DNA from: Mytilus trossulus
Lineage: Eukaryota
Assembly: GCF_036588685.1 (NCBI RefSeq)
Contig: NC_086377.1
Location: 15,128,001 to 15,192,000, forward strand
Reading direction: 5' to 3'
DNA: 64,000 nucleotides
A program made the translations under genes and the position numbers. The notes below the pieces were generated by a model. That model worked only from the letters and a program-made list of their open reading frames with translations, was not told the DNA's origin and did not search any database. Of the stretch, positions 1 to 58,389 are shown piece by piece. How positions within the stretch are numbered: position 1 is the first letter of the stretch; each line of letters starts with the position of its first letter.

Positions 1-117
1 GAGGCCGGAATCAGCAACGAGAAAGAAAACCAAACTTGAATATCAAGAAACTCGCTATTAATTTAATAAAGAAAACATTAAGATAAATACAATATAATTT
101 CAAAGTACACATTTTGA
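1..117. repeat. Dispersed duplicate of 11233-11349 (1 mismatch)
   Basis: gaggccggaatcagcaacgag...gtacacattttga occurs at both positions; the copy here is cut by the window edge. Confidence 0.9.
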
Positions 118-354
118 GTAGTGTGATTTGTGTGGAGCGAAACCAGAGTTGTGATCATATTTACATAAGGACCATAAAAGGGGACTATACAAACAAGGTC
201 TATTTACTTTAGGCCTAAGTCTATTTACATAGTAGTTCTTATCAACTCTTAAGTAAACAAAGTTTGTTTACATAGACTAAAAATAAACAAATCACCCAAG
301 TTACGTAATGTACAAACTGATCCAAAATGAGTAAAAAAAAGGGGGAGATTGATA

Positions 355-428
355 GATTGATTGTTGGTTGCTTAACGTCCAGTGGTAAATATTTCATGCA
401 TATTCAGGGCAATAACAAGTTAACAATA
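355..428 (-). mobile_element. SINE 3' tail fragment ((AATC)n tail family)
   Basis: gattgattgttggttgcttaacgtccagtggtaaatatttcatgcatattcagg is the reverse complement of the SINE 3' end at 42420-42487. Confidence 0.75.
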
Positions 429-634
429 AAAAAAAGGAAAAAAACTCTCTTGTTTGTTTGTTTTTTTTTTGTTTTTTTTTTTTTTACTATCATATTTCTT
501 TATTGAGATCGTCTCTTATATTTTATTTGAATCGAAAAACACAAAAAATATTATGTATATTTTTTCTCCGGAAAATAAAACACACTCCCACCCGAAACTG
601 ATATAGTTACCGCCATTTTGAAATTGTGAAAAAA

Positions 635-2232
635 ATGAAAATGTTGCAAACAGTAGTTATCGGATTATGTGTTATTGTTGGAGTTTTAACCAAGGTTATA
701 CCCATCACAAATATTTGTGAGAGTCAGGATGGTGTACTTAGGTGTTCGTACAGTGGTGAGGGGCAGTACATCTCCCTGCAAGATCTAAACAACATTCGAG
801 AGATTCGGTTTGAAAGATTTTTCCAACCATCAACACTTTTCATTGAGAATGCCAAACAATTACGTCAAATTATCATACAATCAGGATCTACGCAGTGTGA
901 GGATATTTCTTGCGACAACCCAAAAGTATTGATATCAATAGCAGGCATCCCTTGTCAAGTAAGTTGTAGACTGGATTTTATTTGAGTGTATTTTTTTGTA
1001 ATCAATTTATGTTTTGAAACGCTCCCCTTTAATTTCCATGATAACCAATTGATCAACTAATCACCAAAGAATAAAAACCAAGAACTGCAAAGGGCCATCT
1101 CAAAGGTGATAATGAAACAAGTTATCATCAACATTACAACCAACACAGCATTAAGTTAATATACTTCATTTTTTTTATAGATATTTAATAAAAGTATTTC
1201 AAATGTGAAATTAAACTACAACTATAATTTACATTGTATCAGAATTTACAAGAAAAGTTTTTTAGTTTTTTTATTCCTTCTTTTTCAGTCATCCAAATTC
1301 ACAACCTCCAGCATCACTTATACAACATCAGAACCTGCTTCCTCCCATCAGGTATGAGTATATCCTACAAATAAAATAATTTCTTTTATAGATAATGATA
1401 TCTTTTAGTATGTACATATGTAAATAAGATATAAAATAATTTCTTTTATAGATAATGATATCTTTTAGTATGTACATGTAAATAAGATAATAAAACAAAA
1501 AATATATTATTGAAACAAAATGGTATAATGATTTTTTTAAATTACAGACAGAAAGACCAATTACTTCCACTACCAGCACACCACCATCAACTTTGTCTTT
1601 ACAAAGTGTTCTCTTGGTTGTTTTTGGTGAGTTTTAATAGAACATAACTATTTTTAATATGTTTAATACATGTATGAAATGAAATTTAAAACAACTAAAT
1701 AGGATTAAACTTTTGGTAAACAATTTAACCACCAACCCTATAATTTTAGTAGACAATTGTATATCTTAGTGGTTGATTATATAAATAAGCAATCAAAGAG
1801 AGAGAAGAGAGAGTTGTATTTTAATGAATTGATAGAATGAATGGAAGTCAACACCATGTTCAACAATACATTTGTACTATATATATAGCTACAACCAATT
1901 TGGGTAGACAACTGGTAAACCTTACCACTTTCAGCTAAAGGTTGTTTTTTTTGTGTGTATGTTGAAATAAAATATGAAAATTTTATAGTAAAAATTTAAA
2001 AGAAAAGATAGATTTTAAAATTGTCTTTTTTTTTTGCATTGCAGCTTCCCTAGCTATATTCGTTGGAATCCTTTTCACCATACACTTTGTAAGGAAATAT
2101 TTACAAAAAAAATCAACTAGACCACATTCTACACTAGACCAAGTTGTAATATCAAACTTTATTAATTCATCAAATTCCAGTATAGAACTTTTTAATTTAG
2201 AAAAGATAGACAGTATAAAAAAAAACGAATAA
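635..2232 (+). CDS. Spliced type-I membrane glycoprotein, apparently intact, ~217 aa; exons 635-958, 1289-1351, 1548-1626, 2045-2232; alternative last exon 2246-2474
   Basis: Signal peptide and Cys ectodomain (CSYSGEGQY...GIPCQ|gtaagt). S/T-rich exons, GT-AG boundaries with matching phases (0,0,1). TM SVLLVVFASLAIFVGILFTIHFV followed by RKYLQKK. Confidence 0.75.
1365..1490. repeat. 60-bp tandem duplication in intron
   Basis: ataaaataatttcttttatagataatgatatcttttagtatgtacat repeated at 60-nt spacing. Confidence 0.8.
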
Positions 2233-2528
2233 CTTTATTTTGCAGAAATTATTCTCTGTGCTCTATATGCATTCAGACCACAACTTGCTAATAATATACA
2301 AAGATTTTACGAACTTCTATTCCCAAATCGACCACTCCGACATCAACCCATCAACATTAACCAACAACCCATCAACATTAACCAAAGACCAAGAAGAAGA
2401 AGACAACATCAACCAAGAGTTCGAAATCTACCACTTAAAGCTAGAAACCAGCCAGACCGCCTTATGTACTATTAAAATGATTATTTCAAATTCACTATAC
2501 CTTAATTATGTTCTGACCACCTCCCTCC

Positions 2529-2793
2529 TCAATCTTCTATTTCATCATCACTGATTTCATAAAACCCCCCATCATCATCATCATCTTCTTCTTCTTCCTC
2601 TATCATTCCCATCATTACAAGTAAAACTAAGTCCAACTCCTCATCATCTAAGTGATAGATTTGGTAAATCATATCCTGATTTTCATCCACATCCTCATCC
2701 ACATCCTCGTCATCAGACAAATATATTTCATTTAACATATCCTGATATTCAGGATCTAGAATCAAATATTCATCAATTTCATAATTTTCCATC
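2529..2793 (-). CDS. Small highly acidic protein (~87 aa from MENYEIDEY); paralogue of 37568-37783
   Basis: D/E-rich ORF. The motifs DP-x-Y-x-x-MLNE-x-Y-x-SDD and GFY-x-x-S are shared with the 37.6-kb copy. Confidence 0.6.
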
Positions 2794-3586
2794 TTTACTC
2801 TATTATGTTTTATCATAAAATGATAATTTTTGCTATATGATATTTTAAACTCATAAAAATATTTTATCATTTATTACTTAGAAGAGACACATGAGACAGG
2901 CAACTTTATTAGTGTCATTTTTATTATCCTTTTGAAACTTCTTGAATTTTATATAACACATGTTAAAGGGTAACTCCACAAGATCCAGAAGTTGATTTGT
3001 CACATCTATTACATATTTAATTATCTCTTCAAGTAAATACTGTCTACCTTGATAATGTCATATACAAACACAGATAATTTAAAGTGTGACATGGTATGAT
3101 AATATAATAATTATCTTGTTAAAGAAGCCTATTGATTGTTTACTGTACAGTTAAAAACTTATCTATTTATTGAACTTACTCAGGTAATTATCGGCAATGG
3201 ACATTTGAGCGCATTGACAGGACATTTGAGCGAAAAAAAAGGACGTTTGAGCGCCAAAGTATAGGACATTTGAGCGCCTAAATTTTAGGACATTTGAGCG
3301 AAAATAAGAATAAGCGTAGGACATTTGAGCGAAAACAAGTCTTGGATAGAGAATTGTCTTATTGGCAATCATACCACATTTTCTTACGAATATAGTTCAT
3401 TAAATGAGGAGTTTACCAACAAAAAGATTAAAACATATTTTAATTGTAAAAAACAAAGCACTAAAAACAAAGCACAGTCATAAAACAGGAGTTTACCAAC
3501 AAAAAGATTAAAACATCTTTTAATTGTAAACAAAGCACTAAAAACAAAGCACTGTCATAAAACATAAAACTCGGCAACGGCATTAT

Positions 3587-4146
3587 TTACAAGTCTGTTC
3601 GGGCTTGGAACTTATATCCCAGGCTTCTGACATAAAAATCCCTCGTAATTTCCTGCTGGCAGTATTTCGAATGCAAATCCCGGAGATTCTGTTCCTTCTC
3701 CTTTTCTGTTCGGCTCTGCGGTGCATCAATGTTCAAAATCCGAATTTTTATGTTAGTCACAGATTGCAATTTGATAATAGTGTCAAGGAAAGTATAAATT
3801 GATGGATGACTGTGATAGAACTGCTCGTTATAATGGGCATGAAATGATTCGGGCCCATTGTTAGTACGTTTTAACGAGGATGGAACTTCGGCCCAGAGAT
3901 GAGGGGGAAATAACGATTCATCTGTTATATAAGTATCAGTCAGGTAATCTGCAAATTCTATACAAGGCTTGTCGTTAGGTACAACGGCCATAAAATCTTC
4001 TACGAAACAGTCGGCTACTTCGTCTGGAGCTAAAAAGGCTATCCCAAAAATCCCTTTAAGCCATTTACTAATGTCTGAATCAAGCTCTTTGTATTGTTGA
4101 CTAAGTCCAACTTTCTGGATTTTTCGCCACCAGGCTTGGCCTAAGT
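3587..4146 (-). pseudogene. MULE transposase C-terminal part
   Basis: LGQAWWRKIQ..., PPHLW, RTNNGPESFH, HPSIYTFL motifs typical of MULE DDE transposases; truncated at about 4146. Confidence 0.85.
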
Positions 4147-4235
4147 AGTAGTAGATGTAGTATGAATCCTAAAAAGACAACTCCTCATCCAAGACACAAT
4201 ATAATTAAAACAAGCAATTATATATTGTATATATA

Positions 4236-4342
4236 CACTGTAAAAATTGTGTTTAGGGCCTAAACACTTTTCTATACACATTTCATGTTAGATCTAAACA
4301 TGTTTAGGAAATGTTTAGGCTCTAAGCACAATTTTTACAGTG
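4236..4342. mobile_element. 107-bp hairpin MITE nested in the MULE
   Basis: TIRs cactgtaaaaattgtg / cacaatttttacagtg flanked by TA. Confidence 0.7.
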
Positions 4343-4610
4343 TATTGTATGAATATTGTAAAGTGCCTAGAAAATCAACCTAACAATGTTATATAGGTTA
4401 CAGTACGACCTTCAACATGGAGCCTTGATACCTAACCCTATATGTGGTAGCTTATATTCAAATGTGTTAAAAAATTAATCTAAAGGAGGTATAAGATAGA
4501 CATATAATGATATAGATATAAATCAAAATTAAAAGAAGTTATGGAAGTTGAAGCGTAACAGACGAACAAGTAGTTTACATTAACATTAAATTTGTAAAAA
4601 AAGGTACTTA

Positions 4611-4725
4611 CTGTACATCTCCAGGATATTTCTTCTCCTTTTAGTGTTTTGTCCACTCTATATCGGAAACTGTCACAAACAAGGCTTCTTTTTCCCTTAT
4701 TAGTCTCGGTCAAAATAATATCCAT
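4611..4725 (-). pseudogene. FLYWCH zinc-finger first exon of the MULE transposase
   Basis: MDIILTETNKGKRSLVCDSFRYRVDKTLKGEEISWRCT followed by a gtaagt donor. Confidence 0.7.
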
Positions 4726-6459
4726 TTTAACACGTACATGTATTATTAGTATTAAGATTTCAAGGGACATTTCACTTAATAGATATATATATAAGAATTT
4801 TAGAACAAAGAAAATTTGCATAGCCAATGAATTATAGTAGAATTGATTGGTAAATAGAGATCAACTTTGGATTTCACTTACATAAACCAGCCAGAACCGG
4901 TCGAATTACTCGGGTGTGAAATAAAATAAAAAATATTTATAACTAAATCTTACTTTTTTTTCTTACTTTTAAAAAAAAATCTTAATTCGTGTAAAATTAT
5001 CAGGGAAAATTTCGCTCAAATGTCCTGTCTGAAAACTCAGGTAAGGTTAATATCCCGGCGCTCAAATGTCCTATGAAGTCGGCGCTCAAATGACCCTATG
5101 TGCTTTTTTCTTTTTCGCTCAAATGTCCTATGCCCGTAATTATTACCCCCCTACCTACTTCCAAAATGTTAATTAAGAACTATACTTATAAGTATCCCAT
5201 ATGTTAGAGGTTATAAATTACCCACCTGTTTAATTTTAAACAAGATAATCTATATTTAACCTTTATATTATTTTTTTTAAATTATGTTTAAATTAGATAA
5301 ATACTTTTAATATATTTTTTAATATAGAATTAAAATTTTAGTCTTCAACATTCCTTTTCATGTAAACTATAATGTTCTAATTAGTACATTGTTGAATGTA
5401 AATATGTTATATACTGATGTTAAATGGTATTAATTAGTTGTTGTCACTGTACAGTTTATTTAGTTCTCAGATAATATGATAGTTATTCTGACCTACCTAC
5501 AAAAACAATAGTCTCGACAAAGATTTTATTCAAATCTAAATAATAGACAAATAGTTTTATTAAATAATGTTTGCTATTCATTATTTGAGTTGATAAAAAA
5601 AAACACTGATGCAATACTTGTGATAATACCATTAGGTTGGAAACTTTTTATAGTACTTTTATTGTTAAACACTCATATCATATGTTGTATTTTTTTTTGT
5701 TGTTGCCATAAATGTTATTAAACTATTGATAGTGCTGCTTGTACAGATAATGAATGATATTGGACCATTCAAAAGTATTTATTTGATTTGCAAACATTTA
5801 TTTTAATTTTTTTAAAGAAATTAAATGAGAATGAACATGGTGAAAGGAGAATAAAAGTATTCCTTATGAATTGAATAACTTATTTTGAATGGTCTTGTGT
5901 AAATATGTTTTTTTAATATATTCAATCAAACTTATGTATTTCATGTGATATAATATATATCAACATACAATCAAACTTGAGTAAGTTTTAAACTTTTTTT
6001 AATCACAAGATCTTTTTTTTCCAAACACTTATTTTTGTATATTTTTACAACTTAAAAGAAGAATAACAATTGGTTTTCTTTATATCATCCATAGTTTAAG
6101 GTTTGATTACATAGTACATAATACTCAATTTGTTGATGCTCAAAAGATATCATATCTACCACATAGTTGTTCAAGAAAAAAATGTGTTCATATTATACTG
6201 TTTTTTTTATATTCTCTTTATTAAAATTGCTATTGCAATTTAGATCTTGTATCAAGCTAAACTGTTACTATATTTATTATACCATGTTGTTTTTTTTTAA
6301 TTTTATATCAGATAGAATAAAAAGTTTTTGAATTTGATTAGCCTTAATTTTTTTATACCAACAACAGACAAAATCACCCTGCCTACCTGTCTGTCTAGAG
6401 TTGAAGTTCACCACCTCAACATATACATAAAAAAAACAACAACAAAAAAACACACAAAA

Positions 6460-7420: not shown

Positions 7421-7454
7421 TCTGTACAGGAGTCAGTTTCACAAAAAAAAATAC

Positions 7455-7581
7455 TTAAACATTCCATTTGCATTTTCAAGAAGTCGTTGAACAAAGGATG
7501 TGTGCCACAACCTGTAGATCCGACAACAAGCATAGAAGTTGGACATTCAAAAGGTACAAGACTTTTGGTCTCCCACCACAT
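7455..7581 (-). pseudogene. N-terminal fragment of a Polinton-type A32/FtsK-like DNA packaging ATPase
   Basis: LVPFECPTSMLVVGSTGCG, then a 1-nt frameshift, then TSFVQRLLENANGMFK: Walker A with the characteristic PF-x-x-P prefix. Confidence 0.7.
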
Positions 7582-7779
7582 CTTCATTCGTATGCAATCA
7601 AACAATAAACTGATTGAAAATGTAATGGGTATTACTATATAAAGGAACCAAAAAAAACAAACAATTATATTAATATTAATATTTTTATTAGATAAAATTA
7701 CATATTATTGGTTGATGTGAACATAAAATACCACCAGCAACATTTATTATCTACTCTACAATTGCTAAATATTTTCATA

Positions 7780-8207
7780 TATGAAGATTAGTTAGTTTCT
7801 ACATGTTCTCCGTACAGCTTTGCATATAATAAAATGCCACATATCTCTCTTAAAACACCCCCTGAAATCTCTTAAAACGAATACATCTAAATGTTGTAAG
7901 TATGATAAAATCTCCTGTTCACGTAAATACCCACAATATATAATATCCATGAAACATATAAAGAATTTATGTTGTCAAAATCGATGTTACGCTGATCAAT
8001 CAACTCTTCTCCAACATAAAAAATATCTAAATCGTAGAAGTTAGAACTTTTTATAAATTGTTCATAGCAAAAATCTACAAATTGTTTTAAAATTAAAGTT
8101 GGGAATGTTACTAAGAAGTCTCTAATGACTTCTGGGGATTGACATGTTCTACTTATCCGATAAAGTGTTTCCATGGACAATTGAAAAAGGGATTGTTGTG
8201 TTGTCAT
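7780..8207 (-). pseudogene. Orphan ORF, frameshifted near 7940; N-terminus resembles a BC/SOCS box
   Basis: MTTQQSLFQLSMETLYRIS...IRDFLVTFPTLILKQF; reading continues in another frame (YCGYLREQEILSYLQHLDVFVLRDF). Confidence 0.35.
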
Positions 8208-8447
8208 TGCTAAATTATTGATAGTATATAATAAATTTCTCAATAAAGAAAAAAATACAAAAATAGTGAGATCAGATTATTCAAATAAGAATACAAAAAC
8301 AAAAAACATCAACTAAATATTCAAGTTTTGAATATCAATTACAAAATTATATTTGATTAACGACAAAATATTCACATATGGTATTTTTCTCTAAATGTTT
8401 ATATATTTACTTTTTTTTTTTCTTTAAATGTCTATACACATATAATC

Positions 8448-10286
8448 TCATTCGAAATCCGATTCGGAGGAGTCCGTTATTTCGATAACCTTCGGTCTCT
8501 TTGTGGTGAAGGTTTGCTTCTGAAATAAAAAAAAAGAAGAAATATTTTAGAAATTATAAAACTAAGAAGTTATCTCCATACATATGTAGGACTTTTAATT
8601 TATACTTGCTATTCTTACTTTTAAACCAATCAAATGGTAAATAAAAATAAAATCATGTTTGAAATTGGGTTTAAACAAGAGATGAATAGTATATTGTGAA
8701 TCAGTTTACAATCATGGATGATATAGAAAACAATCTAAACGATCTTGAAAGATCAGTGAATAGTAGAACTTTTCTTTTAGTGAAAATTATAGGTATATCT
8801 CTGATCCTATATTCCACTGGAGTTTCTATGGTAGCGGTTATAGAAATGGTTGGTGATCGTTCAAATTCAACATCAATATTTCAACAATTTCAGCTTAAAC
8901 GACCTAAACCGATCTTAGTTCCATGCATAGAAAAGTTAAAGTTTGCGATTGTGGGAGATGTATTTGTAAGAGTGTGTGCAAACATAAATGCGATAGTTGA
9001 CATTAGACAGTACAGAAACCAAACACCAACATCAACGGGGATATTTTTATCTACAACTCAGTATGAACATTTAAAAACAACTATCTTGCAAATAGACGAT
9101 TCTATAAAAAACATTACTAAAACAAAGTGAGAGAAAAAAATATCGAACTTGTGTATGTGTAATATGTAAACGTTTAACTAAAAAAAAACAAAAAAAAACA
9201 AACAAACATTGATAATAAAAAGTTATTCAAAATAGTGTTTCTTACCTCTTCTTCACTTCCTATAGTCTTGTGGCGACTTTCTATCGCTTCACTCAGAACA
9301 GATGGATTGTTCTTAACATTTGTCAGTTTCCGTTTTCGTTTGGTGATCTGAAGAAAATAATAAAAAAAAGTTACAGGAGAAATGTAATTCAAAGTTTTGC
9401 TTACATCAGTTTACAATATAAAACCAATTTTCTATTTAGGAAAAAAAAGTTATTAATTATCAATGAAATTCATATAAATAGATTTGTTATCCTCACCTTG
9501 TTGGTTGATTTCACGGGAGATGTAGCTACTTCCTGCTGTGGTGGTTTTTGTGTGGCGATCTACAATGGAAAAAAATATAACATAAATATCAAACATGACA
9601 TTGGAAACAATTTCAAAATATAGTTGAACAATTTAATGGATATGCATTAACTTTTTTTTGTAAACGTGAAAATTACACACATACACTTACATTTCTTAGT
9701 AAATGAAAATCTCTTTACTTTAAAAACTACATAATTCAAACAAAAAGATAGTATAGCATGTTATGAAAAAACAGAGATGGGTGATGTACAAAATAAAGAT
9801 AGTTAGATAAAAATAAACTTACATCGTAGTCTGCGCTTTTCTCTTCCTTTTTGGGATATAATCTTTTATTCTTAAAAGAAAAAAACATAAAATAAACAAC
9901 TACGCTTAAATCTTTGAATTTTTAAAAATTATTTGAATATTTTCAACAATACATACAACTTTCAAATGAAGACGAGTAAACCTTCTTTCTTGTTTTTATG
10001 AAAATCTCACTAAATGTTTTTATGAAAAGAAAAAGTCACAACTACATTTAGTAATTGAAATAAAAATTTAATCTACCTTATTTTGAATCACTTCCTTCGT
10101 ATCCGCAAAATTTCTTGTAAAGACTTCCATTAACTGCTCCATCTCATCTGCTCCTAATGAAATGGATTTTTGGTTTGGAATGTTCTCCAAGTGAACGTAA
10201 ACATACCCCTTCCACGAATTTATTGTAACTTTTTTGTTCCTACCAAATTTTAGTGTAGCCTTTGACTGGTCTTGGTTAAACTGCAT
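8448..10286 (-). CDS. Intact 5-exon PC4-like protein (164 aa); exons 10286-10077, 9870-9823, 9559-9497, 9347-9246, 8519-8448
   Basis: All four introns are GT-AG and phase 0, giving an open frame to TGA. Exon 1 FGRNKKVTINSWKGYVYVHL...SISLGADEMEQL fits the PC4 fold pattern. KRKRK NLS, acidic tail, upstream TATA at ~10366-10373. Confidence 0.75.
8714..9130 (+). CDS. Membrane-anchored PC4-domain protein nested in intron 4 of the antisense PC4-like gene
   Basis: Hydrophobic segment FLLVKIIGISLILYSTGVSMVAVI, then the PC4 signature VDIRQY...PT..GIFL...QYEHL. Confidence 0.7.
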   Translation: MDDIENNLNDLERSVNSRTFLLVKIIGISLILYSTGVSMVAVIEMVGDRSNSTSIFQQFQLKRPKPILVPCIEKLKFAIVGDVFVRVCANINAIVDIRQYRNQTPTSTGIFLSTTQYEHLKTTILQIDDSIKNITKTK

Positions 10287-10654
10287 GATGATTTGTTTTT
10301 CTTTTACGGTAATGGTTATTGGTAAAAAATCTGGAAGCAAGGTAGAGTTGAAGATATTTCGTTAGTTTATATAGGAAATGAGGTGTTATAATGTTTACTA
10401 GCAATTGGAAGATGGACGCGTATGTTAACACAACACACCAATACAATTGTTTTAAGGTGTGGCCAAGATAAAATTCGACATAAGCCACACCAATTTGATT
10501 TACAATTAACTTGAAATTGGAGATAAGATCATCAATTTATTAATTTATTTTAAAGACAAATTCGTGATAAAAAAAAAGAAGAACAAAAAAAACGATTTCG
10601 TATTATCATACTATAGTGTAATACAAATGTATTGTATTCGAGAAAAATGGAATT

Positions 10655-12546: not shown

Positions 12547-13068
12547 TTAACGCAAATAGTTTCTGACTTGTCTCTGATAGGATTTTTGCAATCTTTCAAA
12601 ATAATCGATATATAAACTAATAAAAGGGGGTAAATCATTATGTGGAATTTCTATTTCTGGATTGTTAAGAAGAGTATATAAACAGGATGACTGTAGAGTT
12701 AAATAAGAAAAGGGGTCATACACGTAGGAAACTGTATAATTAATCGCATCTAAATAATCTATGTCATCATGATTGTTTATCAATTTGTTCCATACTTGAT
12801 GTGGCGAAAGTTTAAATAGATCCATATCTGGTAACTCTGAAGAATTTGTTGATGGTAATGTTGTTTGTCCTGTTGTTGCTCCTGGTCCTGTTCCTGACGT
12901 TGTTGTTGTTGTAACTGATTGTGTGGATGTTGAGACACTCGACGCAGCAGTAGCGATATCTGTTGTGGCAGTTGCGGTTGTAGTTAAACTTGGATATAAC
13001 GCAGCAAAATGTTGTGGCGTCTGTAACCGGGAATTTCCTGCAACAGATATCAGTGTTATAGAAAGCGT
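12547..13068 (-). pseudogene. C-terminal half of the same orphan protein (T-rich linker plus helical domain)
   Basis: Open frame to a natural stop; the 5' side is cut at the junction with polB (13068/13069). Confidence 0.65.
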
Positions 13069-16000
13069 TTTTCTGGTGGTTTGGTAAATGTTAAAAATGA
13101 GGATCACAAATGTTTCTTGTGGAGCATATTAGCAGGTCTACATCCAGCTCAACGAAACCCTAATCAAGTTTTACATTATAGAAAATATGAACACTCTATG
13201 GATTTAACCGGAATCGACTTCCCCGTTTCATTGTCTAAAGTTGAAAAATTTGAAAAACAAAATGACTTATCCATCAACGTGTTCGGGTGTGAAGATGGGG
13301 TTGTATTTCCACTATACCTTTCAAAAATGGACAATGGATATAAAGAAATTATTTTATTGTACTTATCAAAGGAAAATAATTCTCATTATTGTTGGATCAA
13401 GAATTTCAGTCGTTTCCTTGGACACACACGAAAGCATCACGGTCAACTTCACTATTGCCATCGATGTTTGCATGGGTTTATTAGAAAAGATTTGCTAGAT
13501 AAACACCGACCATACTGTGACAAATTCGATTTTCAAAAAATTGAATTACCAGAAGAAGGGAAAAATATTCTTGAGTTCAAGGATTTCCATAAAAGTATGC
13601 ATGTTGGATTCACGATTTATGCTGATTTTGAGGCACTGACTCGGAAAATGGATTCATGTTTACCAGATCCGAATATATCATCTACAACACATTGCACGAA
13701 ATTTGAAGCTTGCGGTTATGCTTATCAAGTCGTATGTACCAACAGTAACTACACCAAACCCCCAGTTGTTTACAGAGGTAAAAATGCTGTCGAACGTTTT
13801 TTTGGAGACATGTTTAAAGAAGAAGAGTACGTTAATGGTATTTATGGTGACATTGAACCTTTGATCATGACCGATGAAACAGAAAAAAAAATCAAAAGTG
13901 CAACTCATTGTAATATTTGCAGCGGCAAGTTTTCTGATGGTCTCATCAAAGTCAGGGATCATTCTCACATTGGTGTGACTGGGGATCGATATTCTGATAA
14001 CTATAGTAATTACAGATCAGCAACTTGTCAGGCCTGTAATCTGAATTTGCAAAATCCATCATTCATCCCCATATTTTTTCACAACTTTCGCGGATTTGAT
14101 TCCCATTTACTGATAGAAGCTGCCGGAAAATACAAGGACAAGAAGATCGTGTGTATTCCAAATAATATGGAAAAGTATATTTCCTTCTCTGTTGGAAATT
14201 TAAGGTTCTTGGATTCGTACCAGTTCATGTCGGAAAGTCGGAGAGGCTGGTAAAAAATTTAGCTGTAGACGGTCTGACTCATTTTCACCACTTTAGAAAA
14301 GCTTTTCAATCCGATGAAATAGCCAAATTGCTACTACGTAAAAATGTCTATTGTTATGACTATGTAGATAGCCATGATAAATTCGAGGAGACTATGTTAC
14401 CCCCTAAAACAGCTTTCTACAACACCATAAAAAGAGAGCATTTTTCTAATGATGACTATGATCACGCACAACGTGTCTGGGCTGCTATGGACATGAAAAC
14501 ACTTGGTGATTATCACGACCTTTATATATTAACTGACGTTTTATTGCTGGCAGATGTGTTTGAAAGATTCAGGACAATGACAATAGAATACTATGGACTT
14601 AATGCCTGTTATTTTTACACAGCCCCTGTACTTGCTTGGCAAGCTGCCTTAAAAATGAGTGGTGTCAGTTTAGAATTGTTAACATCTCCAGACATGTATA
14701 ACTTTTATGAACTCGGTTGTCGAGGTGGATTAAGTATGATTAGTCAAAAGTATGCTAGGGCTAACAATAAATATGTTAAAGGTTATGACTCTACTAAACC
14801 TAGCTCATATCTGATGTATTACGATGCCAATAATTTATATGGTTGGGCTATGTCACAACCTCTCCCAACTGGAATGATGCGATGGTTAGATGCGGGTGAA
14901 ATACAAGAATTCAACTTGTTAAAAAAAACAATTGATGGTCCAAAGGGCTACATGCTTGAAGTCGACCTGGAATACCCAAATGAAGTACATGAAAATCACA
15001 ATTCCTACCCCTTAGCCCCCTCACACAAGCACGTGGTGGACGAAGAGCTTTCACCATACAGTAAATCGTTGAATGAAGATTTATATGGTGAACACCGGAA
15101 AAGACCTAAAACGATCAAACTGATACCAACGTTGGAAAACAAATGTAACTACATTACCCACTACAGAAATCTACAGTTATATATCAAATTAGGAATGAAA
15201 ATCAAGAAGATCCATAGGATCATAGAATTTGATCAATCTCCCTGGCTAGCTAAATACATATCCTTTAATACGAAGAAACGTCAAAAATCGAAAAATTGCT
15301 TCGAAATTATTATTTTTAAATTAATGTGTAATTCCGTCTTCGGAAAAAACATGGAAAACCTAAGAAACAGAGTTGATATCAAACTCGTCAATAGCGAGCG
15401 TAGTTTAAGAAAATATACTAGCAAGCCGTCGTTTGAGCGGTTTCAAATCTTCAATGAAGATTTGGTTGGAATTCAAAACAAGAAGACGAATTTATTACTC
15501 AATAAACCCGTCTACGTGGGAGCGAGCATATTGGAACTTTCTAAAATCGTTATGTATGATTTTCACTACAACGTAATGAAGTCAAGATATGGGAAAAATA
15601 TCAACCTTCTCTTCTCCGATACAGATTCTCTGATGTATGAAATTTCCACTGAAGATATTTATCAGGATATGATGACGTTTAAAGATTATTTTGATACTTC
15701 GGCATATGATGTAGAGAACAAACTCCATTCAACAGTTAATAAAAAAGTTGTTGGGAAAATGAAAGATGAATTATCTGGTAAGTGTTTTATTCAAATAGGC
15801 ATACCCGCATATTTAATTTCAAACAATAAATATAAAAGTCAAGTGAAAGTAAATTATCTGTACTTGTTCATACTTTAATTGTTTTCATACTTTAAATGTC
15901 AAATATGTTGGGTTTTTTTTTTTTTTACATTATAATTACTATTTGATTTTATCCTTTTCAAGAGTCCCTATTACGGAATTTGTAGGGTTGCGTCCAAAGA

Positions 16001-16314
16001 TGTATTCCATAATCTACGATGTTGATGGAACACAGAATGAAAAACGAACAGCTAAGGGAATAGCCAAGTGTGCCGTAGACCAACAAATTAGACATGAACA
16101 TTATAAACAGTGTTTGTTTCAAAACAGAATGACTTTAAATGATATGAACTTGATTCGTAGTGATAATCACATTCTATATGTGAATCACATTAGAAAAACT
16201 GGACTGTGTAACTCTGATGATAAGCGGTTTTGGAAAAATTCCATACACAGTTATGCGTTTGGACATTATACAATTCCAATTGTAAATAAAAGTTGTAATG
16301 TATATTGTAAATGA
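13069..16314 (+). pseudogene. polB: Polinton/adintovirus-type protein-primed family B DNA polymerase (endonuclease-VII/HNH-containing lineage), 5'-truncated, 1 frameshift, 1 intron
   Basis: vOTU-like KCFLWS...SHYCWI; ExoI YADFE; Endo-VII CNIC...RDHSH...CQACN; ExoII HNFRGFD; ExoIII YILTDV; Pol A DANNLY, B KLMCNSVFGK, C DTDS; then LRPKMYS and KGI. Frameshift at ~14239, intron 15778-15961. Confidence 0.93.
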
Positions 16315-16430: not shown

Positions 16431-17017
16431 TCACTGTAGTTGGCTTAAATACTCCATTGGGTTATAATTCTCCTCTCCCGGGATTTTAGGTTTTTTGTTT
16501 ATCATATCACCTTCTTTACTGTCCATGGATCTCTTATTAGAATGGTTAAGCACTCTTAAATGTTGCGCTGTGTAGGGTGGTGGTGGAGGCGTGGCTTGAG
16601 ATGTCAACGGAAGCAACCCTTTTGCAGTTTGTGGTGAATGGTGTTGTGGAGGATGCTGCATAGGTTGTTCTTTTTCCTTAAAAGAAATGAAATTAAATTA
16701 GTCACTTTTGAAAAAGTTGATATGTTTAGATTGTATTTTTATTGGAGTTCGACTGAATTAAAGATGGATAAAAATGAAAAACTTACCTCTAATTCATTAA
16801 ACAGTTGCTCCAACGCTTCTTTCATGTTAACTAGTTCACAGAATTCATCATAACCAAGAGAGCATCTTCCCGGGTTTCTAGGATTGTTGTTGTATAAGTT
16901 TATATAAAAATAGTCATTCACTTTTGTTAATACTATAGCCATATTCCTCCCGAAATTGGTACGCATCTCCAAATTTCCCTTTATACTATTTTTCTTTGCA
17001 AAAGCGTAACTTTCCAT
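16431..17017 (-). CDS. Intact 2-exon divergent PC4-like protein (158 aa); exons 17017-16787, 16676-16431
   Basis: Phase-0 GT-AG intron. FGRN...YFYINLY...CSLGYDEF aligns with the 10286 gene. Pro-rich tail with PPPPY and KKPK; TATA at ~17084-17092. Confidence 0.7.
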
Positions 17018-21094: not shown

Positions 21095-21125
21095 AAGATG
21101 TTTAAAATTTAAACAAAATTGAATG

Positions 21126-36824: not shown

Positions 36825-37050
36825 AGGAACAGTCGTTGTCCAAATTTCCCCCAGAAACTGTTGAGACACAGTTTGGCAAGACTACGTAAACCTGGATTTA
36901 CCTTGATGCTGTCGTAATCTAAGTTTTTGCCTTCATTTTCTGTATACAATCGAATGTATTCTCGTTTTTCTTCCTCCGTCCGACAGTGTTTGGGGAAACC
37001 ACTGGCTTCCTGTTTTATTTTAAGAAACAGCTGGACGTAGTCATTCATAT
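36825..37050 (-). pseudogene. polB: Internal fragment of second-lineage pPolB (motif B region)
   Basis: FLKIKQEASGFP...I..NPGLRSLAKLCLNSFWGKFGQR, the hallmark Polinton pPolB motif B. Confidence 0.9.
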
Positions 37051-37540: not shown

Positions 37541-37567
37541 GATTTATTAGTTCACTATACCTTATAA

Positions 37568-37783
37568 TCACACATGTTCCATATCCTTCTCCTCCTCACT
37601 TTCATCTTTGCTCATTTTATAGAACCCCTCACCCTCATCTTCAAAAAGTTCTAAAATAATGATATCTGCCTCCATTATTATCAGATTTAAATCATCATCT
37701 GACCAATAAACCTCATTCAGCATTTCCAGATAGTTGGGATCCATATTTATATACTCCTCATAATTTTCATTTTTATTTTCCAT
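37568..37783 (-). CDS. Small acidic protein, paralogue of 2529-2793
   Basis: MDPNYLEMLNEVYWSDDD...GFYKMS; flanking DNA 37547-38215 is homologous to 2490-3190 plus 5136-5185. Confidence 0.6.
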   Translation of the reverse strand: MENKNENYEEYINMDPNYLEMLNEVYWSDDDLNLIIMEADIIILELFEDEGEGFYKMSKDESEEEKDMEHV

Positions 37784-43569: not shown

Positions 43570-43760
43570 ATTCTAGAGCTGTCTAAAATTGTAATGAACG
43601 AATTCCATTACAAAGTGGTGTTACCAAGGTACAAGGAAAACTTGAACTTAATGTTTACTGATACTGACAGCTTAGTGTATGAAATTTTCACTGAACATTT
43701 CTATGATGACATGGGAGAATTTCAACAATATTTTGACACCTCATATTACGAAGAAAGTTC
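43570..43760 (+). pseudogene. polB: Short pPolB fragment (motif C), same lineage as but distinct from 13069-16314
   Basis: ILELSKIVMNEFHY...LMFTDTDSLVYEIFTE.FYDDM...YFDTS aligns with 15528-15700. Confidence 0.88.
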
Positions 43761-44003
43761 ATGGCCAATCAGTGTATGATTCTGTTCTTAATTCTCATTA
43801 TATTAGACAGGGGTGTGGCAATTGAGCTATAATTTTTTTAGTTGACAATGATTGGCATGTAGGAATGCAGCTTTTACTTGGCAAGTGATGAAATTCACAA
43901 GTAATCAGACAATGATTAATGTGGACCCTGCTATAATTATTTGTCTAAACTTGAGAAGGAAAAAGTCAAGACTCTTACTAGATGTAAATTAAAAATAACA
44001 TAC

Positions 44004-45632
44004 CTTTGTCCATAAGATATAAAAACTTTCCAACTTTTGTAATTTCTTGAACAGCCAATGGACATTGGTAAACATGTTTATTGATTTCTTCTGAATGGCA
44101 CATGTGCCTATAAAAAGCCTGCCTGTCTGTCTCTGGTACATCCAAGTTTGCAAACACAGTTGACATGTAATGTCTCATTTGGGTGGCGTTAATCTCTTTT
44201 GTAAGCCCTGCCTGCTTACATACTTTGTTTACACTATTCCATCCATTGACATGAAAGTCTGAGCCTTTGATGTGTGGAAATACATATATATTACTAGGGT
44301 TTACACCTGCCATCTCTCTCATCTGTGGATCAGTAAGGTTTTTTTTATAGCTTTCCAAGAATCTTTGGGAATGAGCATTGGGAGCATATGGCACACACTG
44401 TTGCCAGACTGATATGACAATTTATATATTTCAAATAATTCAAGCTCCTCTGATGTTTTGGCTTTTTTCTTGTGGGTTTCAGATAATCAGACACCATCTT
44501 TTGCAGCATCCCATTCCTTTCTAGTAAGTCTACTTGGTTCTCCTCCCCGCTTGGCATTGAACAGTTTAATTCTGGCTACCACAAGATCTCTTAGCCGGGG
44601 ATATTCATTCATATCTAAAATCTTGTACGGGTCATCCATCTGTGCAATTCCAGTCAGAGTGTAATTCCGCAATCTTCTTACATCATCATCAAGAGGTAAA
44701 TAGTGTGGTCGTCTAAGGTTTTCCTGTCTATTCTTAATACAATTGTATTCAGCTCCATCGAATATCTCCTTTCTGTAGTAATCAAATAATGTTTTGAATT
44801 CCTCAATTTTTACCAGCTCATCTTTCTTACCCTGCAATAAATGCTGCCCTTTTATGTGGCTAATAACATTTTTCAAAAGATGACCTACATTTTTTTTTAA
44901 TCCAGATTTCATACCTCCATCTTCTTTTGTAGCCATCACATGGATAGCATCCATAAAAGTTGTAAAGTGTTCCATTTTAAACATGTCTAATGTTGCATTT
45001 ATGTCTTTGCCAATTTTAGCTGCCTCGCTTTTAAAACAAAAGAAAAGATTTGCTATCATCCTCATGTGCTTCATTATATTTTTTCTGTTCTGTGGGTTTT
45101 TGTCCTTCCTTGCTGCAAATCTTCTGTAATTGTGAAATCCAAAGTCTTTTAGGTATTTATCAGTTTTACAAAACTTTCCACTTGTATCATCCAAAAAGCC
45201 ACTTAAGATGTCTGCCTTATATTCTTCAGAGTAACCATCATCTCTAACAGCAGAAAGTGGAATTGCAGTCGGTGTAATTGTTGTTCCCTCTGCTGCTGTA
45301 CATTTGATTTGGTGAATCTTAAAGTGTTCTTTTACAAAATACCCCTGACATGAGGAACACATAGCCCTATTTTCCATCACATTTCCTTCCCTCTGTTTTC
45401 TTGCCTGCCTTTCCTTAACTATTTGATTCACATCAAAGTCCTCCTCTTTCATTAGCATCAAGTTGTACAGGTGATAGCCTCTCCTTTTCAAATTGCATAA
45501 AACCTGATTTCTGTCTTTTACTGGAAGCTGCTTTTACCTCATCGTTGTCTTTATGTTTAGTTAGAATATGCCTGCTTAATCGACTTTGAAATATACCACA
45601 AAAAGGACATGGTCTTTTTGGCTTTCTTGTTC
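44004..45632 (-). pseudogene. Tyrosine recombinase-like protein with N-terminal zinc fingers; disrupted exon
   Basis: CPFC...RHILTKH, CSSC...HQIKC; catalytic R in LFNAKRGGE, TQMRH, M(C)HS, HVYQ. Stop at 44487, frameshifts and an internal deletion; bounded by AG/GT splice sites. Confidence 0.75.
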
Positions 45633-45963
45633 CTTCAAAACAGAATAATAATAAATAAATACCAAATCATCAATATGAACTCAGACCAAACACAAGAATT
45701 ACCATAAGACCATGTTTTCCTCATTTGGAATCTATGCATTTTGTAGACTAGTTTTTTATATGATTTTGAAAAGTAACTAGCTGTGCTATGAGTGCCTGAT
45801 ACGCCCATCGCTTTTTCAAAGAAATATGTTCCACAACTCCTCAATGTCATATCAGATGTTCAGTAGAACTAATATATATATGTGCACAATGATGCACTCA
45901 CATTATCATATCAGAGGGAACACATAACTATATTAGTTTCAACCTGATTGGACTTCAACTTAA

Positions 45964-52640: not shown

Positions 52641-53528
52641 GTATCTTTCGTCCCTCTTCCTTCCACATGCTAGTTAAAACAAATCGTCTTATCGTCGATA
52701 GCCACATGTTGTTTACGTATTTCAAATTGTACAGCCTGATTTCTTAAAACACAAAAAAGTGCATTTGCTTCATTGCCTACTTCATTCACGAGTTTGTGTA
52801 TTGCTCTTTTTTTTTTTCTTAAAAAAAACCCGATTATTTTAAAGTTTCTAAAATTAAATAAGATGAAAGAGGTTCCAACTTTCCGTTAATCTAGTAAAAA
52901 CTTTTCTTATAACATTTTCACTTTGTCTAGATCGCATGTCAAATTCGTTTGCAATATTAAGCACATCCATGATACAAAGATAAATGCATAAAACTATTGC
53001 AACACAGACCCTTGTTGTATCGTGAAAGTGTCTTTATAGAATGTTTAAATTACTCAGATGAACGAATGAAAATCACCTTTTCAAGGTGACGGATTTCTGT
53101 CATTAAAAATCCTATGATAAAAGAAACTCTTCTTTAGGAATATGTTTATTTAAAACCCCTATCGTCCTGAACATATATGTAATATTTACCGCTGGATTTT
53201 TATTATTAAACAACCCTAAACCTCCTGTGTATATATAGTAAAACAAAAGAATGAAATGTTTAATAGAATATCAAGAGTTATGCCGCTTTAAGCAGAAGTT
53301 ATTCGTGTACTTCACGTCAAATGTTTGCTGCTTGTCGGAAAAACTCGATAATGCACAATCAAACAAAACACACTAAAAAAATAAAGTTTTTATACTGGTG
53401 TCAAAAAGAAAAATCACCGATGCTTAAAACCAATAAATATGATATTAATATACAAAAATAAATGTTAATAAAAAAGTAAACAACATTCCAGTTACGCAAT
53501 TTTTGTTGACTTATGCCGGGAAAACAAA

Positions 53529-54210
53529 ATGGAATTATACAAGGTGCTCTGTTTGTCTCTCATGTTAAATACATCTGTTGCATATTTCTTGCTAAACCAT
53601 AACACTTATGAAGGTGTTGAAAACCCCTCAACATTCGAAATTGTGCAAATAAATTGCCAGTACAGAGGTCCGGGGATATATGTATTCCATGGATTAAAAA
53701 CTATCGAGAAAGTGACGATGAAAAGACTAATGGAGGAGGCTCATGTGAGAATTGAAGAGGGGAGCTCACTGGAGCAATTTATGATATTGACGGGGCCTAT
53801 GAGTTATTGTTATTTGGTGAACGCACCGTCTAGTGTACTAGTTATGATACAGCAGACACCTTGTGTAGGTATCATTTACATAAATCAGTTGTTTTGGTTT
53901 AACTTTCAAACAAAACTGGGTGCTACACTTGGAACTCAAAATTAAGTAAGAATATTTTGATTTTCCTAAATTGAGAGCATATGCTATGGAGGTAATGCTT
54001 ACAAAACTAACAACAACTATATCTAAATTTTGGTTTCCAAGACATGATTATGTGAAAATGTATTATTCAAGATTTGTATGGGTAAAATTATATATACCAT
54101 TATAGTTTAAAAATATTTTATACAGGGTGATCAGACCACAATTACAAATAGTGGTGCAGAAAAGACAACAATCTTTTCTACAAGAAACGGTGTTACTGCA
54201 GTGAACACAG
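53529..54210 (+). pseudogene. Third member of the glycoprotein family; exon 1 53529-53864 intact, T-rich exon 2 from 54126 degraded
   Basis: Signal peptide, CQYRGPGIY, IQQTPC|gtaggt (same intron position and phase as the paralogues), tacag|GDQTTITNSGAEKTT. Confidence 0.65.
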
Positions 54211-55370
54211 ATGAATGGATTAAAACTACTATCATGGCCACAATTCAAGCCAAGAGTAGAAACCATGGTGCTATGAGCACTACACATGACAATGGCTATA
54301 TGACGTATGATGATGGTTATGTTGAAACTACTACCATTACTCAACATGCTCCGGTACATGTGCATCAAATTCAAAAATAAATAGTTTATTGACAAAATCA
54401 AGAAACTCATAGTTAAAACTATTAGATACTCGTGTGTGTGACCCTGATCCATCTAGAGTCCTTACACCTACACTCTGCCAACACGCCTTGTCCGGCACAC
54501 ATTTCACATTCGAATCCTATACACGTTTGTGTACAAATAAGAAAAATAATTAACTGGAAAATCATTACGTCCATTTTGACCATGTGTGTCGTGTATTCAT
54601 TTGGGGGATAAGTTTAATCATTTTCCCACCTCACCCCAAAAAACACACATAAAAGACTTTTTTTAAGGTTTTAATGTGAAATTTCTTATAAAAAATGTAT
54701 CAATAAAAAAGGAGATATCCCTATTTTAATATTACAAAACATGTATTATTTTCTGACATAGAATAATTGAGTGTATGTGTGTCAATTTTGGTCATTGAAA
54801 ATGTTATCCCTTACGGATCTCATATCGTTGTAGTGAAAAACAAATTCCTCCGTAAATTGGTGCACTTAATAATTCATTCAGACCACCTGCTGGTTCAGAC
54901 CCCTTTATTTAGAAAAAGCAAAAACAAAGAAATTATGTGATTTTTTAATGACAGAGTATGTTAGCTGTAGATTGAAGATTCTTTCTTTGAATCACAATGT
55001 ACTATATAGAAACTCGATCTGCTTTCAGTTATTTGTCATAAAAATTTTCTTTGAATCCCATTAATCCTGTATAGATATTATTTTTTCATTTCCTAAAAAT
55101 TGTTTGAATTAGTATTAAATATTAATATCACTCATTTGAAAACAAGCCATCTGTTTCACTTTTATATTAATGATATTTAATTTTCAGTCCTGTCTTCGAG
55201 CAAAGTTTGAAATTAATATACATGTAATAGGACAATATAAATACGAGCTATAATAGCTGCTGTTTTTATTCTCTTATGTATTGTTTGATCTCAAAATGTT
55301 TAAATTGTAAGTATTTACAAGTAAAAAAAAAAAATTATTTGATTGATGATATGAATGTAAAACTGTTTTT

Positions 55371-55547: not shown

Positions 55548-56386
55548 AGAAAACCAAGTAATTCTAAACAGACCACAAAAAAGAAAGATTGATAGAGAGG
55601 ATAACGAACATGTGGAAGTGGAGAATAACGTCTCAATTCAGTAAGATTTATTTTTACGTTTTGCAAGTTAGTATTCATTAAAAAAAAATATTTGTTCGGT
55701 CTATATAACAATAAGTAGTCCGCCCATCATTAATTTTTTTTTTGGAAAAATGGTTTGAAATTAACTTTCCATGACCTAACCAATCAAATTGGTGGATTAG
55801 CCAAGATATTTGAATGAACGAATGAATGAATCTTTATTCTCATAAACCATATGTACATAGTTACAGAGATGATATAATATAAAGTACATAAACAATAAAT
55901 AATAGCACATGTATGAAATATTAAATAAATTAACTTAACCGGGTTGATTGACTTTCTCAGTGATAGTTCTAATAAATTTGCATATTTGTTTTCTAGATAT
56001 AGTACAATATTTTCTGAATTAAAAATTTGAATAAATTTAAGAACATTTGCATGGCAAAAGACAAGACAGGTAAATATTTCTTTCTTTCGTGAATATTATA
56101 TACATTTCGTAAAATTATGAAACTCGTCACTGATGTCACTTCAACAGAATATAAACAGTATTTAATAGTATGTTTTTATTTTATTTTATTTATTATATTT
56201 CTTTTATATACTAGAGCATATTTATTTGTTTATTGTAGGGAATTAAAACACATCAGAAAGTATAAAGAATTTCTGGAGAAAAAAGTCATAAGTATTCAAG
56301 AAGAAATAGACAGAAAAAATAAAGATAAGGATGATGAAATAAAATGCATCCTCATTCTTAACAAGAGGTTGAATGATTTAAATTAA
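55548..56386 (+). pseudogene. Possible exons of a degraded coiled-coil gene
   Basis: AG/GT-bounded charged segments at ~55548-55641, 55997-56069 and 56240-56386; contains a stop. Confidence 0.3.
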
Positions 56387-56555
56387 AAAAAAGATGAGAA
56401 ATAAAATCAATGAGAAATTTAGTTTTTGTTTACTTTATGTATGGTGTGATTAGAATTTTTCACTGGAATACCCTCATGGTTAGAATCAGTTTGATAATTG
56501 ACCCTGATGTTTTTTTTCATTTATTTTGGTTATTTTGTCTTTTAAATTGTCATAT

Positions 56556-57040
56556 GATCCCATATTTTTGGTCGTATTGATATTGTAAGAGGATATTAAT
56601 CATATTTAGTTGTAAGTGCTAGTGGGAAGTACAACAGCTGTAACAAAATAGGTGTTTAAAAATGATAACTCAGCATTATTTTGTATGACGTCATATGGAT
56701 ACTTAAAATTTATATTGTCAGATGAAATTAATAATATTAAAAACGCTGCAGGCAAGTTTAACATTTGTACACCAAATTGGGTGTTTAAATTTAAATCCTT
56801 TTAATCATTTAAAAAATGTCTATGGCTAGCATACGAGTTTCATACAACAACTGTAGGCAACATTATAAATCTACATATCATTTGAAGTTCTATTTCCCAT
56901 ATTTTGGTCGTATTGATATTGAGGATATTAATCATGTTTAGTTGTAAGTGCTAGTGGGAAAGTACAACAGCTGTAACAAAATAGGTGTTTAAAAATGATA
57001 ACTCAGCATTATTTTGTACGACGCCATATGGATACTTAAA
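56556..57040. repeat. ~150-bp direct duplication (56558-56707 / 56896-57040)
   Basis: tcccatatttttggtcgtattgatattg...catatggatacttaaaa occurs twice. Confidence 0.8.
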
Positions 57041-57790
57041 ACATGACATCATTTGGTTATTTTGTCGTTTGTCATATGAAGTCATAAAGTTAAAAACGTC
57101 ATTGTGATAATATATGATTGTGCCGCAATGTATAATGTGACGTCATTATGGTGTTATTATGTCACGTGATGTGACGTCATTATGGGAGTCGAGGAACCCC
57201 CCTTAGTAGTTAGAATGACTGATGAATGTAAGTTTTTCATGTTTTCTGAATCGTGATCGGGGATGATTTTAAAGAATCTTTACTTAAATTTGCATTAACC
57301 TCATTCATCTGCATCTCCTGTACACTAAAATGTTCCGATGTTGTGTGCGAGAGTTTTACTTCTACTGCTTGGTGCTGCATGTAATTAATGCTATTTCTTA
57401 GCTTACACAATAAAATCTATTATATGTCTAGTTGCACATATTGTATGGTGACTTTTAATCAGTAATAAACAAATTTATCATATAAACTTCAATTTAATCC
57501 TTGAAAGGAGGTCTAGATTGCTAAAATAATTTATCAATTTTATTTTTTTTATTTGTCCAAAATCATTTAAATTCATTTAATCAACATCATTTTATGATTA
57601 TTTGATTAAAATATTAATCATTTATAGTCTTTTACCATTTACATTTTTAAAAGCAAAATAACTGAAAACAGGATAAAACAAAGGGAAGTAACAAAAAAGT
57701 ATTTCAATATTCCCAATACACATCGTTTTGATAACACAAAATACATGTAGTGAACTGATATTCTTTTCCTTCCACTGTAACAACTGTACC

Positions 57791-58024
57791 TTAAATTCTT
57801 CTGAGGCATTCAAATTGTAATCCATATAAGCGACAAAAGAATAAACAAACTCTCAACTCTTCACTTGTGTAGAAAATTAATATAGGAAACCCCAAAAAAT
57901 TATACATCTCATGGATATCAATGTCAAAATCAGAGCAAAAACTTATTGCTTGAGAATATTCATAGTCATAAAAAAAAAATATAATTCCAAATGGCAAATT
58001 TTCTTCATGAATAAAGCTGTCCAT
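57791..58024 (-). CDS. Orphan 77-aa protein
   Basis: ORF with aaATG context; no family recognised. Confidence 0.3.
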   Translation of the reverse strand: MDSFIHEENLPFGIIFFFYDYEYSQAISFCSDFDIDIHEMYNFLGFPILIFYTSEELRVCLFFCRLYGLQFECLRRI

Positions 58025-58389
58025 TTCAGAAGCAAAATTAAAAGGAAAGCACTGTATTCCACATGTATGTTAACTCCAAAAAGAGGCTACATGGTCATGG
58101 CAAAGTAACCCCACAAACTTCGGACAAAAACCTTTAAAGATCTGAATTTTAAAAATACTTTCTTGAAAAGTTATATTTTTTCCTAACCTCCTCTGACCCA
58201 AATTTTCCAAAGTAGCTATCCTGGAATAAATTAATAAAGATGTCTTAAGTATGAACATGAAAGCTCACACTTGATGGACACCCAACCCCATAAAACATGG
58301 ATACTATACACAGCTACATTTCTGTGCAAAACTTTTTATTTCTGGGGTTACTTGTCTGTGATTGTGAGGTTTATATCCAATTCGTCATA

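Follow-up and report, generated by a model that had tools for sequence, protein, structure and literature searches.

Decayed Mavericks with spliced accessory genes in the mussel Mytilus trossulus

Mavericks, also known as Polintons, are elements with a described size range of 15-25 kb (PMC6431247). Here we analyzed a 64,000-nucleotide stretch of the 1.3-Gb genome of the mussel Mytilus trossulus (hereafter the window; C5:15128001-15192000, where C5 is the contig NC_086377.1 that carries it), which holds the remains of such elements. Vertebrate Mavericks, as presented in the portion of PMC8097293 available to us, resemble the mussel elements in their AGTAGT termini, 6-bp target-site duplication (TSD), length of 12.7-24.6 kb, and accessory regions beside a core of polymerase, ATPase, integrase, capsid and protease genes. 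They differ in that no introns were seen there in genes that intact elements carry, whereas the mussel accessory genes undergo splicing, including alternative splicing, and core gene order varies among mussel families, unlike in the vertebrate description. Adintoviruses are likewise animal Polinton-class entities with two polymerase lineages and accessory genes; however, the accessory classes given in the main text of PMC8502044 (PLA2X, GasderminX, Cupiennin, Oncoid, Adintoc, Bcl2 and IAP) differ from ours, and the strings “splic” and “coactivator” do not occur in that main text, although genes of this kind may appear in its supplements. The pPolB1 and pPolB2 Polintons of molluscs and nematodes present two very different polymerases per host group and polymerase exchange (10.1101/2023.08.22.554363); the available part of that account leaves PC4 unmentioned, and the two mussel polymerase types are not equated here with pPolB1 and pPolB2. 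Bivalves have been found to be the richest hosts of such regions, in an account whose available sections do not consider introns (10.1101/2025.04.19.649669). The introns of cryptophyte Polinton-like viruses are group I and not spliceosomal, according to the sections at hand of PMC12220804, and those of 10.1101/2024.03.25.586562 and PMC10294476 add nothing further on spliced arms. Mavericks, their accessory regions and the two polymerase types are already described; a spliced accessory arm is the part for which we found no description, and the literature on molluscs outside supplements, subscription journals and Repbase yielded no account of one.

Between window positions 117 and 56430, decayed arms of six or more Maverick/Polinton lineages, with both polymerase types, lie in a mosaic among unrelated transposons (Table 1). 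By our own rough bounds, about 30 kb of positions 1-58100 is Maverick-derived and about 13 kb comes from other elements. An arm comprising a membrane gene, a PC4-like gene, a nested membrane-PC4 gene and an orphan open reading frame (ORF) travels with the core genes in elements bounded by terminal inverted repeats (TIRs) and 6-bp TSDs, and it is spliced. With a probability of roughly 0.7, we interpret the window as a graveyard of ordinary-sized mussel Mavericks, in which a terminal arm with spliced accessory genes is predicted to be an early, host-handling transcription unit.

Mavericks are common in this genome, as indicated by 154 matches to one polymerase query and 51 to a query of the second type, which agrees with the high rank given to bivalves in 10.1101/2025.04.19.649669. 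From these, 19 polymerase-centred regions of 30-50 kb were taken, a span that larger elements could escape. Both terminal repeats were present in 12 of the 19, separated by 6,322-18,521 bp, and the 6-bp TSD is exact in nine of these 12, has a single mismatch in one and is absent from two. The accessory-bearing elements measure 14.8-18.5 kb, within the Maverick size of about 13-25 kb. One intact family of 18 kb is represented by two TIR-bounded copies that are more than 99% alike and have differing 6-bp TSDs at two target sites, indicating that it was recently copied. It carries integrase, putative capsid, protease, ATPase and polymerase genes, and its 7.8-kb arm contains homologues of four window genes: the membrane glycoprotein gene GP1 and, in conserved relative order, the PC4-like gene, the membrane-PC4 ORF and the ORF at 7890. 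Eight of the nine glycoprotein matches of this family lie 7.6-9.5 kb from a polymerase match. The element whose left terminus opens the window (element A) has no right end within it; its copy on contig C14 is 98% identical to window 440-6232, bears the terminal repeat of element A in inverted orientation, and has integrase-, capsid- and protease-like frames, named from motifs, no more than 4.3 kb from the arm that the two have in common. A scan of 16 element regions detected one or more accessory families in 9. Ten further glycoprotein loci on C5, one of them picked because a polymerase was already known nearby, were compared with ten self-chosen control stretches: a second Maverick gene occurs within 10 kb at five of the loci, in three cases a core gene, and none occurs at the controls. 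The Polinton/Maverick origin claimed in the original prediction is borne out by the polymerase, the ATPase piece, the terminus at 117 and the relatives in TIR/TSD-bounded elements, and the proposed ties of the accessory genes to polymerase, ATPase and a putative capsid are seen elsewhere in the genome, as in the 18-kb family. When checked, the accessory genes proved to be neither single-copy host genes nor unlinked to pPolB and ATPase.

The pieces in the window have different nearest relatives. Window 117-6831, apart from an inserted transposon, is 93-98% identical to two copies elsewhere; 13102-15245 is closest to an element at C8:13.35 (66%), 30636-31493 to one at C1:42.4 (65%), and the GP3 stretch to yet another C5 locus (Table 1). 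At the chimeric junction, the PC4 arm of a first-type element (37042-37548, 88.6% to C8:13.35) adjoins the second-type polymerase piece. These differing relatives and sharp junctions indicate at least six sources, in agreement with the proposal that several divergent strains had accumulated at one locus. Insertion, deletion and inversion, each repeated, likely piled the pieces up. Searching the window and 80 kb on each side with the frames of at least 100 amino acids (aa) from 11 element regions recovered accessory genes, pieces of the polymerase and, for the ATPase, a single broken 5' piece, but no capsid, integrase or protease. A Pfam scan of 295 of the 345 window frames of at least 50 aa, from which most hydrophobic-biased frames were dropped, placed RNase H alone above the cut-off; the matches for PC4, polymerase and FLYWCH were weak.

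For the splicing of the arm, the direct evidence comes from contigs of four runs that we guess to be RNA, aligned to window 400-10600, where uncovered parts are uninformative. These RNA-type contigs confirmed six GT-AG introns of 149-726 nt in two genes: the GP1 exon joint 958-1289 occurs in two runs from two studies, the second GP1 intron is joined in one run, and the four introns of the five-exon PC4-like gene are joined in two samples of one study. The short introns originally predicted are real in these two genes; those of the other membrane glycoprotein genes (GP2, GP3 and GP-B) rest on sequence. A public gene set of Mytilus trossulus lists GP1, with two isoforms, as an uncharacterized locus, and both of our spliced readings are letter-for-letter identical to the public proteins P0024 and P0025. 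In two samples, contigs link the donor of the third GP1 exon (1626) to an acceptor of the PC4-like gene that lies on the other strand, at 10328. In those animals the two genes therefore likely run in one direction, as they do in the 18-kb family, and the window segment looks inverted. The term intron-rich fits the accessory arm; most core genes of the intact families consist of one long frame each, and an intron is inferred in a single polymerase lineage. In that lineage, an intron-like stretch with a strong donor splits the polymerase at 15778-15962, and a related element has an acceptor at the equivalent place.

The membrane protein of the arm is predicted to have a signal peptide, a small cysteine-capped beta domain, a Ser/Thr stalk, a membrane helix and two alternative tails. 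The ectodomain is modelled as a small beta domain with a mean pLDDT of at least 90 over residues 21-110, and six cysteine or glycine positions are invariant over 16 alignment rows. GP1 and the gene of the 18-kb family share 26-29% protein identity, the intron phases 0, 0 and 1, and a structure with two last exons that agrees with public isoform pairs. In other element families, two further unrelated ectodomains are mounted on an equal stalk-membrane-tail layout. Among 1.84 billion representatives, the glycoprotein family has 14 matches, none of them outside bivalves or marine contigs; of the 12 beyond the two isoforms of the family itself, eight come from Mytilus and Saccostrea. No relatives were found in viral and metagenome contigs, and PDB sequence searches with the glycoprotein and PC4-type alignments gave nothing below E 0.6. 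Five or six such genes had been predicted in the window; four first exons (635, 18269, 41076 and 53529) and a tail remnant at 38236 are confirmed. Several genes had been predicted to be still intact; those at 635 and 10286 are open after splicing, and the one at 18269 is broken in its first exon. GP3, in a two-exon reading from 53529, ends without a membrane segment. In one glycoprotein record, the accessions are assigned to more than one species of Mytilus, and three species are represented among the cluster members at 90% or above (P0001/P0002), which suggests that the family spread recently or introgressed.

PC4-like genes number five rather than the predicted four (8714, 10286, 16742-17071, 36123/35945 and 37360), all below the PF02229 cut-off in the window. 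The entire membrane-PC4 ORF is nested in the 726-nt last intron of the five-exon gene, the product of which also has what we take to be a SUMO-interaction-like motif. The model of the soluble PC4-type protein consists of a beta sheet and a C-terminal helix, like the PC4/Sub1, Pur-alpha and Whirly folds, and its top PDB rows, although non-significant, include MoSub1, Pur-alpha and human PC4. The mussel families differ from PC4/Sub1 in that one is fused to a membrane helix and another to a CARD domain. The CARD fusion lies in a TIR/TSD-bounded Maverick at C8:59.205 Mb and joins CARD to a pair of PC4 domains that each pass the Pfam cut-off; a broken copy is found in an element on C65. A search for longer proteins with the PC4 exon of the 18-kb family returned none among 96 candidates. 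At C5:10.993-10.996 Mb, the junction between the PC4 last exon and the orphan ORF has given rise to a tandem array of about 17 copies of units of about 186 bp.

The four predicted pPolB pieces are all present and fall into two types, at 41-58% identity to full frames of other elements: 13066-16314 and 43570-43749 belong to the first type (64% identity over 61 aa), and 30134-31493 and 36818-37042 to the second. One window piece alone matches PF03175, weakly, and in the polymerase tree the window copy sits on an open fork where long branches meet. The families at C4:80 and C5:56 have gene sets in common but differ in polymerase type, which resembles the polymerase exchange of mollusc and nematode Polintons. 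The packaging ATPase predicted at 7455 exists as a broken 5' piece only; that of the intact 18-kb family scores 22.3 bits against Pox_A32, just below the 22.8-bit cut-off. An integrase with rve and chromo domains was confirmed in another accessory-bearing family and read from motifs only in the C14 copy of element A, while Peptidase_C5 is above the cut-off in the 18-kb family and present as a piece in the C14 copy. ORFs of 406-449 aa, which we presume to encode the double jelly-roll major capsid protein, stand in the expected place and share N-terminal motifs, without meaningful Pfam match. Small TIR-bounded elements of 6-10 kb contain polymerase, ATPase and integrase frames, with no capsid-sized frame in their frame lists.

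We propose that a single promoter near the terminal repeat would drive the membrane gene, and that the donor of its third exon would select either of two tail exons or the downstream PC4 exon. The membrane protein, with two alternative tails, would be displayed on the surface of the infected cell and handle the host cell; it likely acts there in immune evasion or in the exclusion of a second infection. For the PC4-like proteins, a likely role is the binding of single-stranded DNA while the element replicates by protein-primed strand displacement. Adenovirus early units show comparable alternative splicing: E3 and E4 are alternatively spliced accessory units of a linear genome with protein-primed replication, and type I membrane glycoproteins are among their products. 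The parallel is an analogy only, as no sequence or fold link between E3/E4 and the mussel arm was found. As Mavericks are annotated by open-frame scans, spliced arms would be missed, and they sit in public gene sets as uncharacterized mussel genes. If this interpretation is true, part of the orphan and dispensable gene set of mussels is viral cargo; the arm yields named candidates for element replication and for the response of the elements to mussel immunity, and the skew towards one chromosome would show the place of their storage or silencing by the host.

Several observations weigh against this interpretation. The soluble PC4-type family is weak, with one of 11 members matching Pfam, a profile match of 34.8% to the Maverick domains that pass the cut-off, and fold matches all at E 0.14 or above. 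The ectodomain has neither a significant sequence match nor a match in the viral fold search (none below 1e-3), and its Atlas leads (ECPIP/C21orf62 and leucine-rich repeats) all score below 0.9. Seven of the 16 element regions lack every accessory family tested, indicating that the arm is not essential, and five of the ten further glycoprotein loci stand alone. The RNA-type contigs show a few letter differences to the window and may derive from other copies; as neither joint to a last GP1 exon is among the joints listed, the evidence for the two tails comes from sequence and from gene models in public sets.

Beyond the graveyard itself, a more ambitious version is tentative: bivalve Mavericks might be live viruses with an adenovirus-style, alternatively spliced early unit in which a single donor chooses among two membrane tails and a PC4 exon, their lineages deploying swapped, unrelated surface domains and the CARD-PC4 fusion against mussel immunity, with one chromosome gathering the expressed arms as both a defence archive and a source of dispensable genes. 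Less probable, though compatible with the graveyard reading, is that the mussel itself keeps and expresses the C5 relics for defence, either as loci that give rise to small RNAs or in the form of surface proteins that shut out newly arriving Mavericks. The strong bias of the relics to C5 would fit. This contig makes up 6.8% of the assembly and carries all 14 matches of GP-B and all eight of GP3, and the other accessory-relic searches placed 10 of 11, 5 of 7 and 10 of 18 matches there (self-matches included throughout). The relics are spread over 9-86 Mb of C5; for the 18-kb family, three of nine glycoprotein copies are on it. The searches started from C5 sequences and the counts are minimum values; local duplication may therefore contribute to the bias. 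Dispensable mussel genes have chromosomal hotspots, Polintons being unmentioned in the available part of PMC10514466. Defence would also fit with GP1 and the PC4-like gene being open and spliced while the core genes are broken or gone. However, element A is young, at 98% identity to two other copies, and its intact genes need no selection. A cluster producing PIWI-interacting RNAs is expected to have a one-strand layout; we rejected this layout here, as the pieces lie on both strands.

It is improbable that the glycoproteins are C5 host gene families captured with their introns as passive cargo of no use to the element. Their host-like intron structure, the confinement of the GP-B and GP3 matches to C5, the five loci without a Maverick neighbour and the existence of homologues in oysters, among them XP_061190627.1, XP_061170782.1 and XP_062567704.1, would agree with capture. 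On the other hand, three unrelated ectodomain types fill the arm in different lineages with a like layout, the exon structure and both tails are kept at about 28% protein identity, the 14 database hits stay within bivalves or marine contigs, and GP1 starts 518 bp inside the terminus. The remaining idea, that of the original prediction, of one larger, intron-rich bivalve virus lineage also bearing a recombinase and an OB-fold gene, is largely refuted and very unlikely: the genes are indeed grouped in the window and 7 of the 19 regions, each only 30-50 kb, lack a terminal-repeat pair, but all 12 two-ended elements span 6.3-18.5 kb, which leaves “larger” unsupported, junctions such as that at 37042 fuse different lineages, and the recombinase and OB fold have their origin in different multi-copy elements, which lack Maverick core genes.

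Table 1. Features of the window, with positions counted from its first nucleotide.
Feature	Position	Strand	Evidence or remark
Left end (AGTAGT) of Maverick element A, with its terminal repeat	117..429	+	98.6% to C5:48.575 Mb (left end) and to C14:38.811 Mb (right end, inverted)
GP1, intact; exons 635-958, 1289-1351, 1548-1626, then alternative last exon 2045- or 2246-	635..2475	+	RNA joints at first two introns
Acidic orphan ORF	2532..2870	-	Paralogue at 37571-37822; also in C14 and C5:48.57 copies
Inserted non-Maverick transposon with FLYWCH finger, presumably MULE-like	3184..5135	-	Absent from both close copies, skipped by one contig; PF04500 just below cut-off
Packaging ATPase, broken 5' piece (Walker A region)	7441..7647	-	tblastn E 8e-7 to element ATPase piece
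Conserved orphan ORF	7890..8276	-	Homologue at same place in intact 18-kb family
Five-exon PC4-like gene, open, 164 aa, basic stretch	8411..10328	-	Four RNA joints; weak Pfam PC4; model and fold matches
Membrane-anchored PC4-like ORF, antisense	8714..9130	+	Profile match 96.7% to Pfam-confirmed Maverick PC4 domains
Protein-primed polymerase, 5'-truncated, broken near 14240; inferred intron from 15778	13066..16314	+	Sequence comparison
PC4-like first exon, downstream of polymerase	16742..17071	-	Layout as in TIR/TSD element C8:13.35 Mb
GP2, multi-exon, broken in exon 1 near 18600	18269..21095	+	Introns from sequence only
Orphan ORF, also near glycoprotein homologues elsewhere	21129..21479	-	Sequence comparison
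OB-fold-like fragment, Helentron/Helitron	26815..27016	+	90.6% DNA identity to ORF 1.2 kb after 2027-aa Rep-helicase gene
Second-type polymerase, 5' part, broken	30134..31493	+	Sequence comparison
Second membrane-anchored PC4-like gene, broken	35945..36545	-	Sequence comparison
Chimeric junction at 37042	36818..37548	-	Second-type polymerase piece (96.9% to C65 element) abuts first-type PC4 arm
Acidic ORF and glycoprotein-tail remnant	37571..38335	.	76% DNA paralogue of 2707-3148
GP-B, second ectodomain family	39041..41076	-	Homologue in TIR/TSD element C8:59.2 Mb; 14 genome matches
Short polymerase piece with DTDS motif	43570..43749	+	Sequence comparison
SET-domain/tyrosine-recombinase element piece	43831..45942	-	93.5% to contigs C107 and C302
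GP3, ectodomain family as GP1	52907..54430	+	93.5% to C5:12.095 Mb
Small ORF with hydrophobic stretch	56093..56430	+	Other copy about 240 bp from Maverick-type terminus

Two predicted members of the system are real genes of other origin. The OB fold is Helentron-derived: its relatives adjoin a Rep-helicase gene with an endonuclease tail at three loci, with matches to Helitron_like_N, PIF1 and Exo_endo_phos_2. The tyrosine recombinase, whose Pfam integrase match is weak (E 0.037), belongs to a separate SET-domain element; a sister family of at least 80 kb has a SET exon and no Maverick core gene inside. In Polinton-like viruses with a tyrosine recombinase, by comparison, this gene lies in one element with polymerase and capsid, which is not so here. 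Three copies of the SET/recombinase element (C4:19145656-, C5:36002667- and C8:41587624-) share a sharp left edge at a TA run and extend over at least 80 kb at 97-99% identity, with a 567-aa recombinase-like frame and a right edge that runs into tandem arrays. The element has 13 near-equal matches genome-wide, the edge of the C4 copy lies about 360 bp from a decayed Maverick, and a literature search yielded no description of the element. Two further candidates were rejected, namely the ORF at 57794 as a Maverick gene, being 96% identical to a non-Maverick region, and the AGTAGT at 57205 as a Maverick terminus, for which no partner end was found.

Maverick relics also occur outside the window, at +110 to +122 kb and -24 to -1 kb, and comprise PC4, GP-B, polymerase, the acidic ORF and a terminus. 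The target of element A (from 84 bases before the window through 117) recurs without the insertion at 11148-11349 with 97.5% identity and itself lies within a Maverick arm. Finally, window 23548-24550, 32067-34358 and 63253-64000 hold what is left of an RNase H retrotransposon, together with arrays of a 502-bp repeat that is common in the host.

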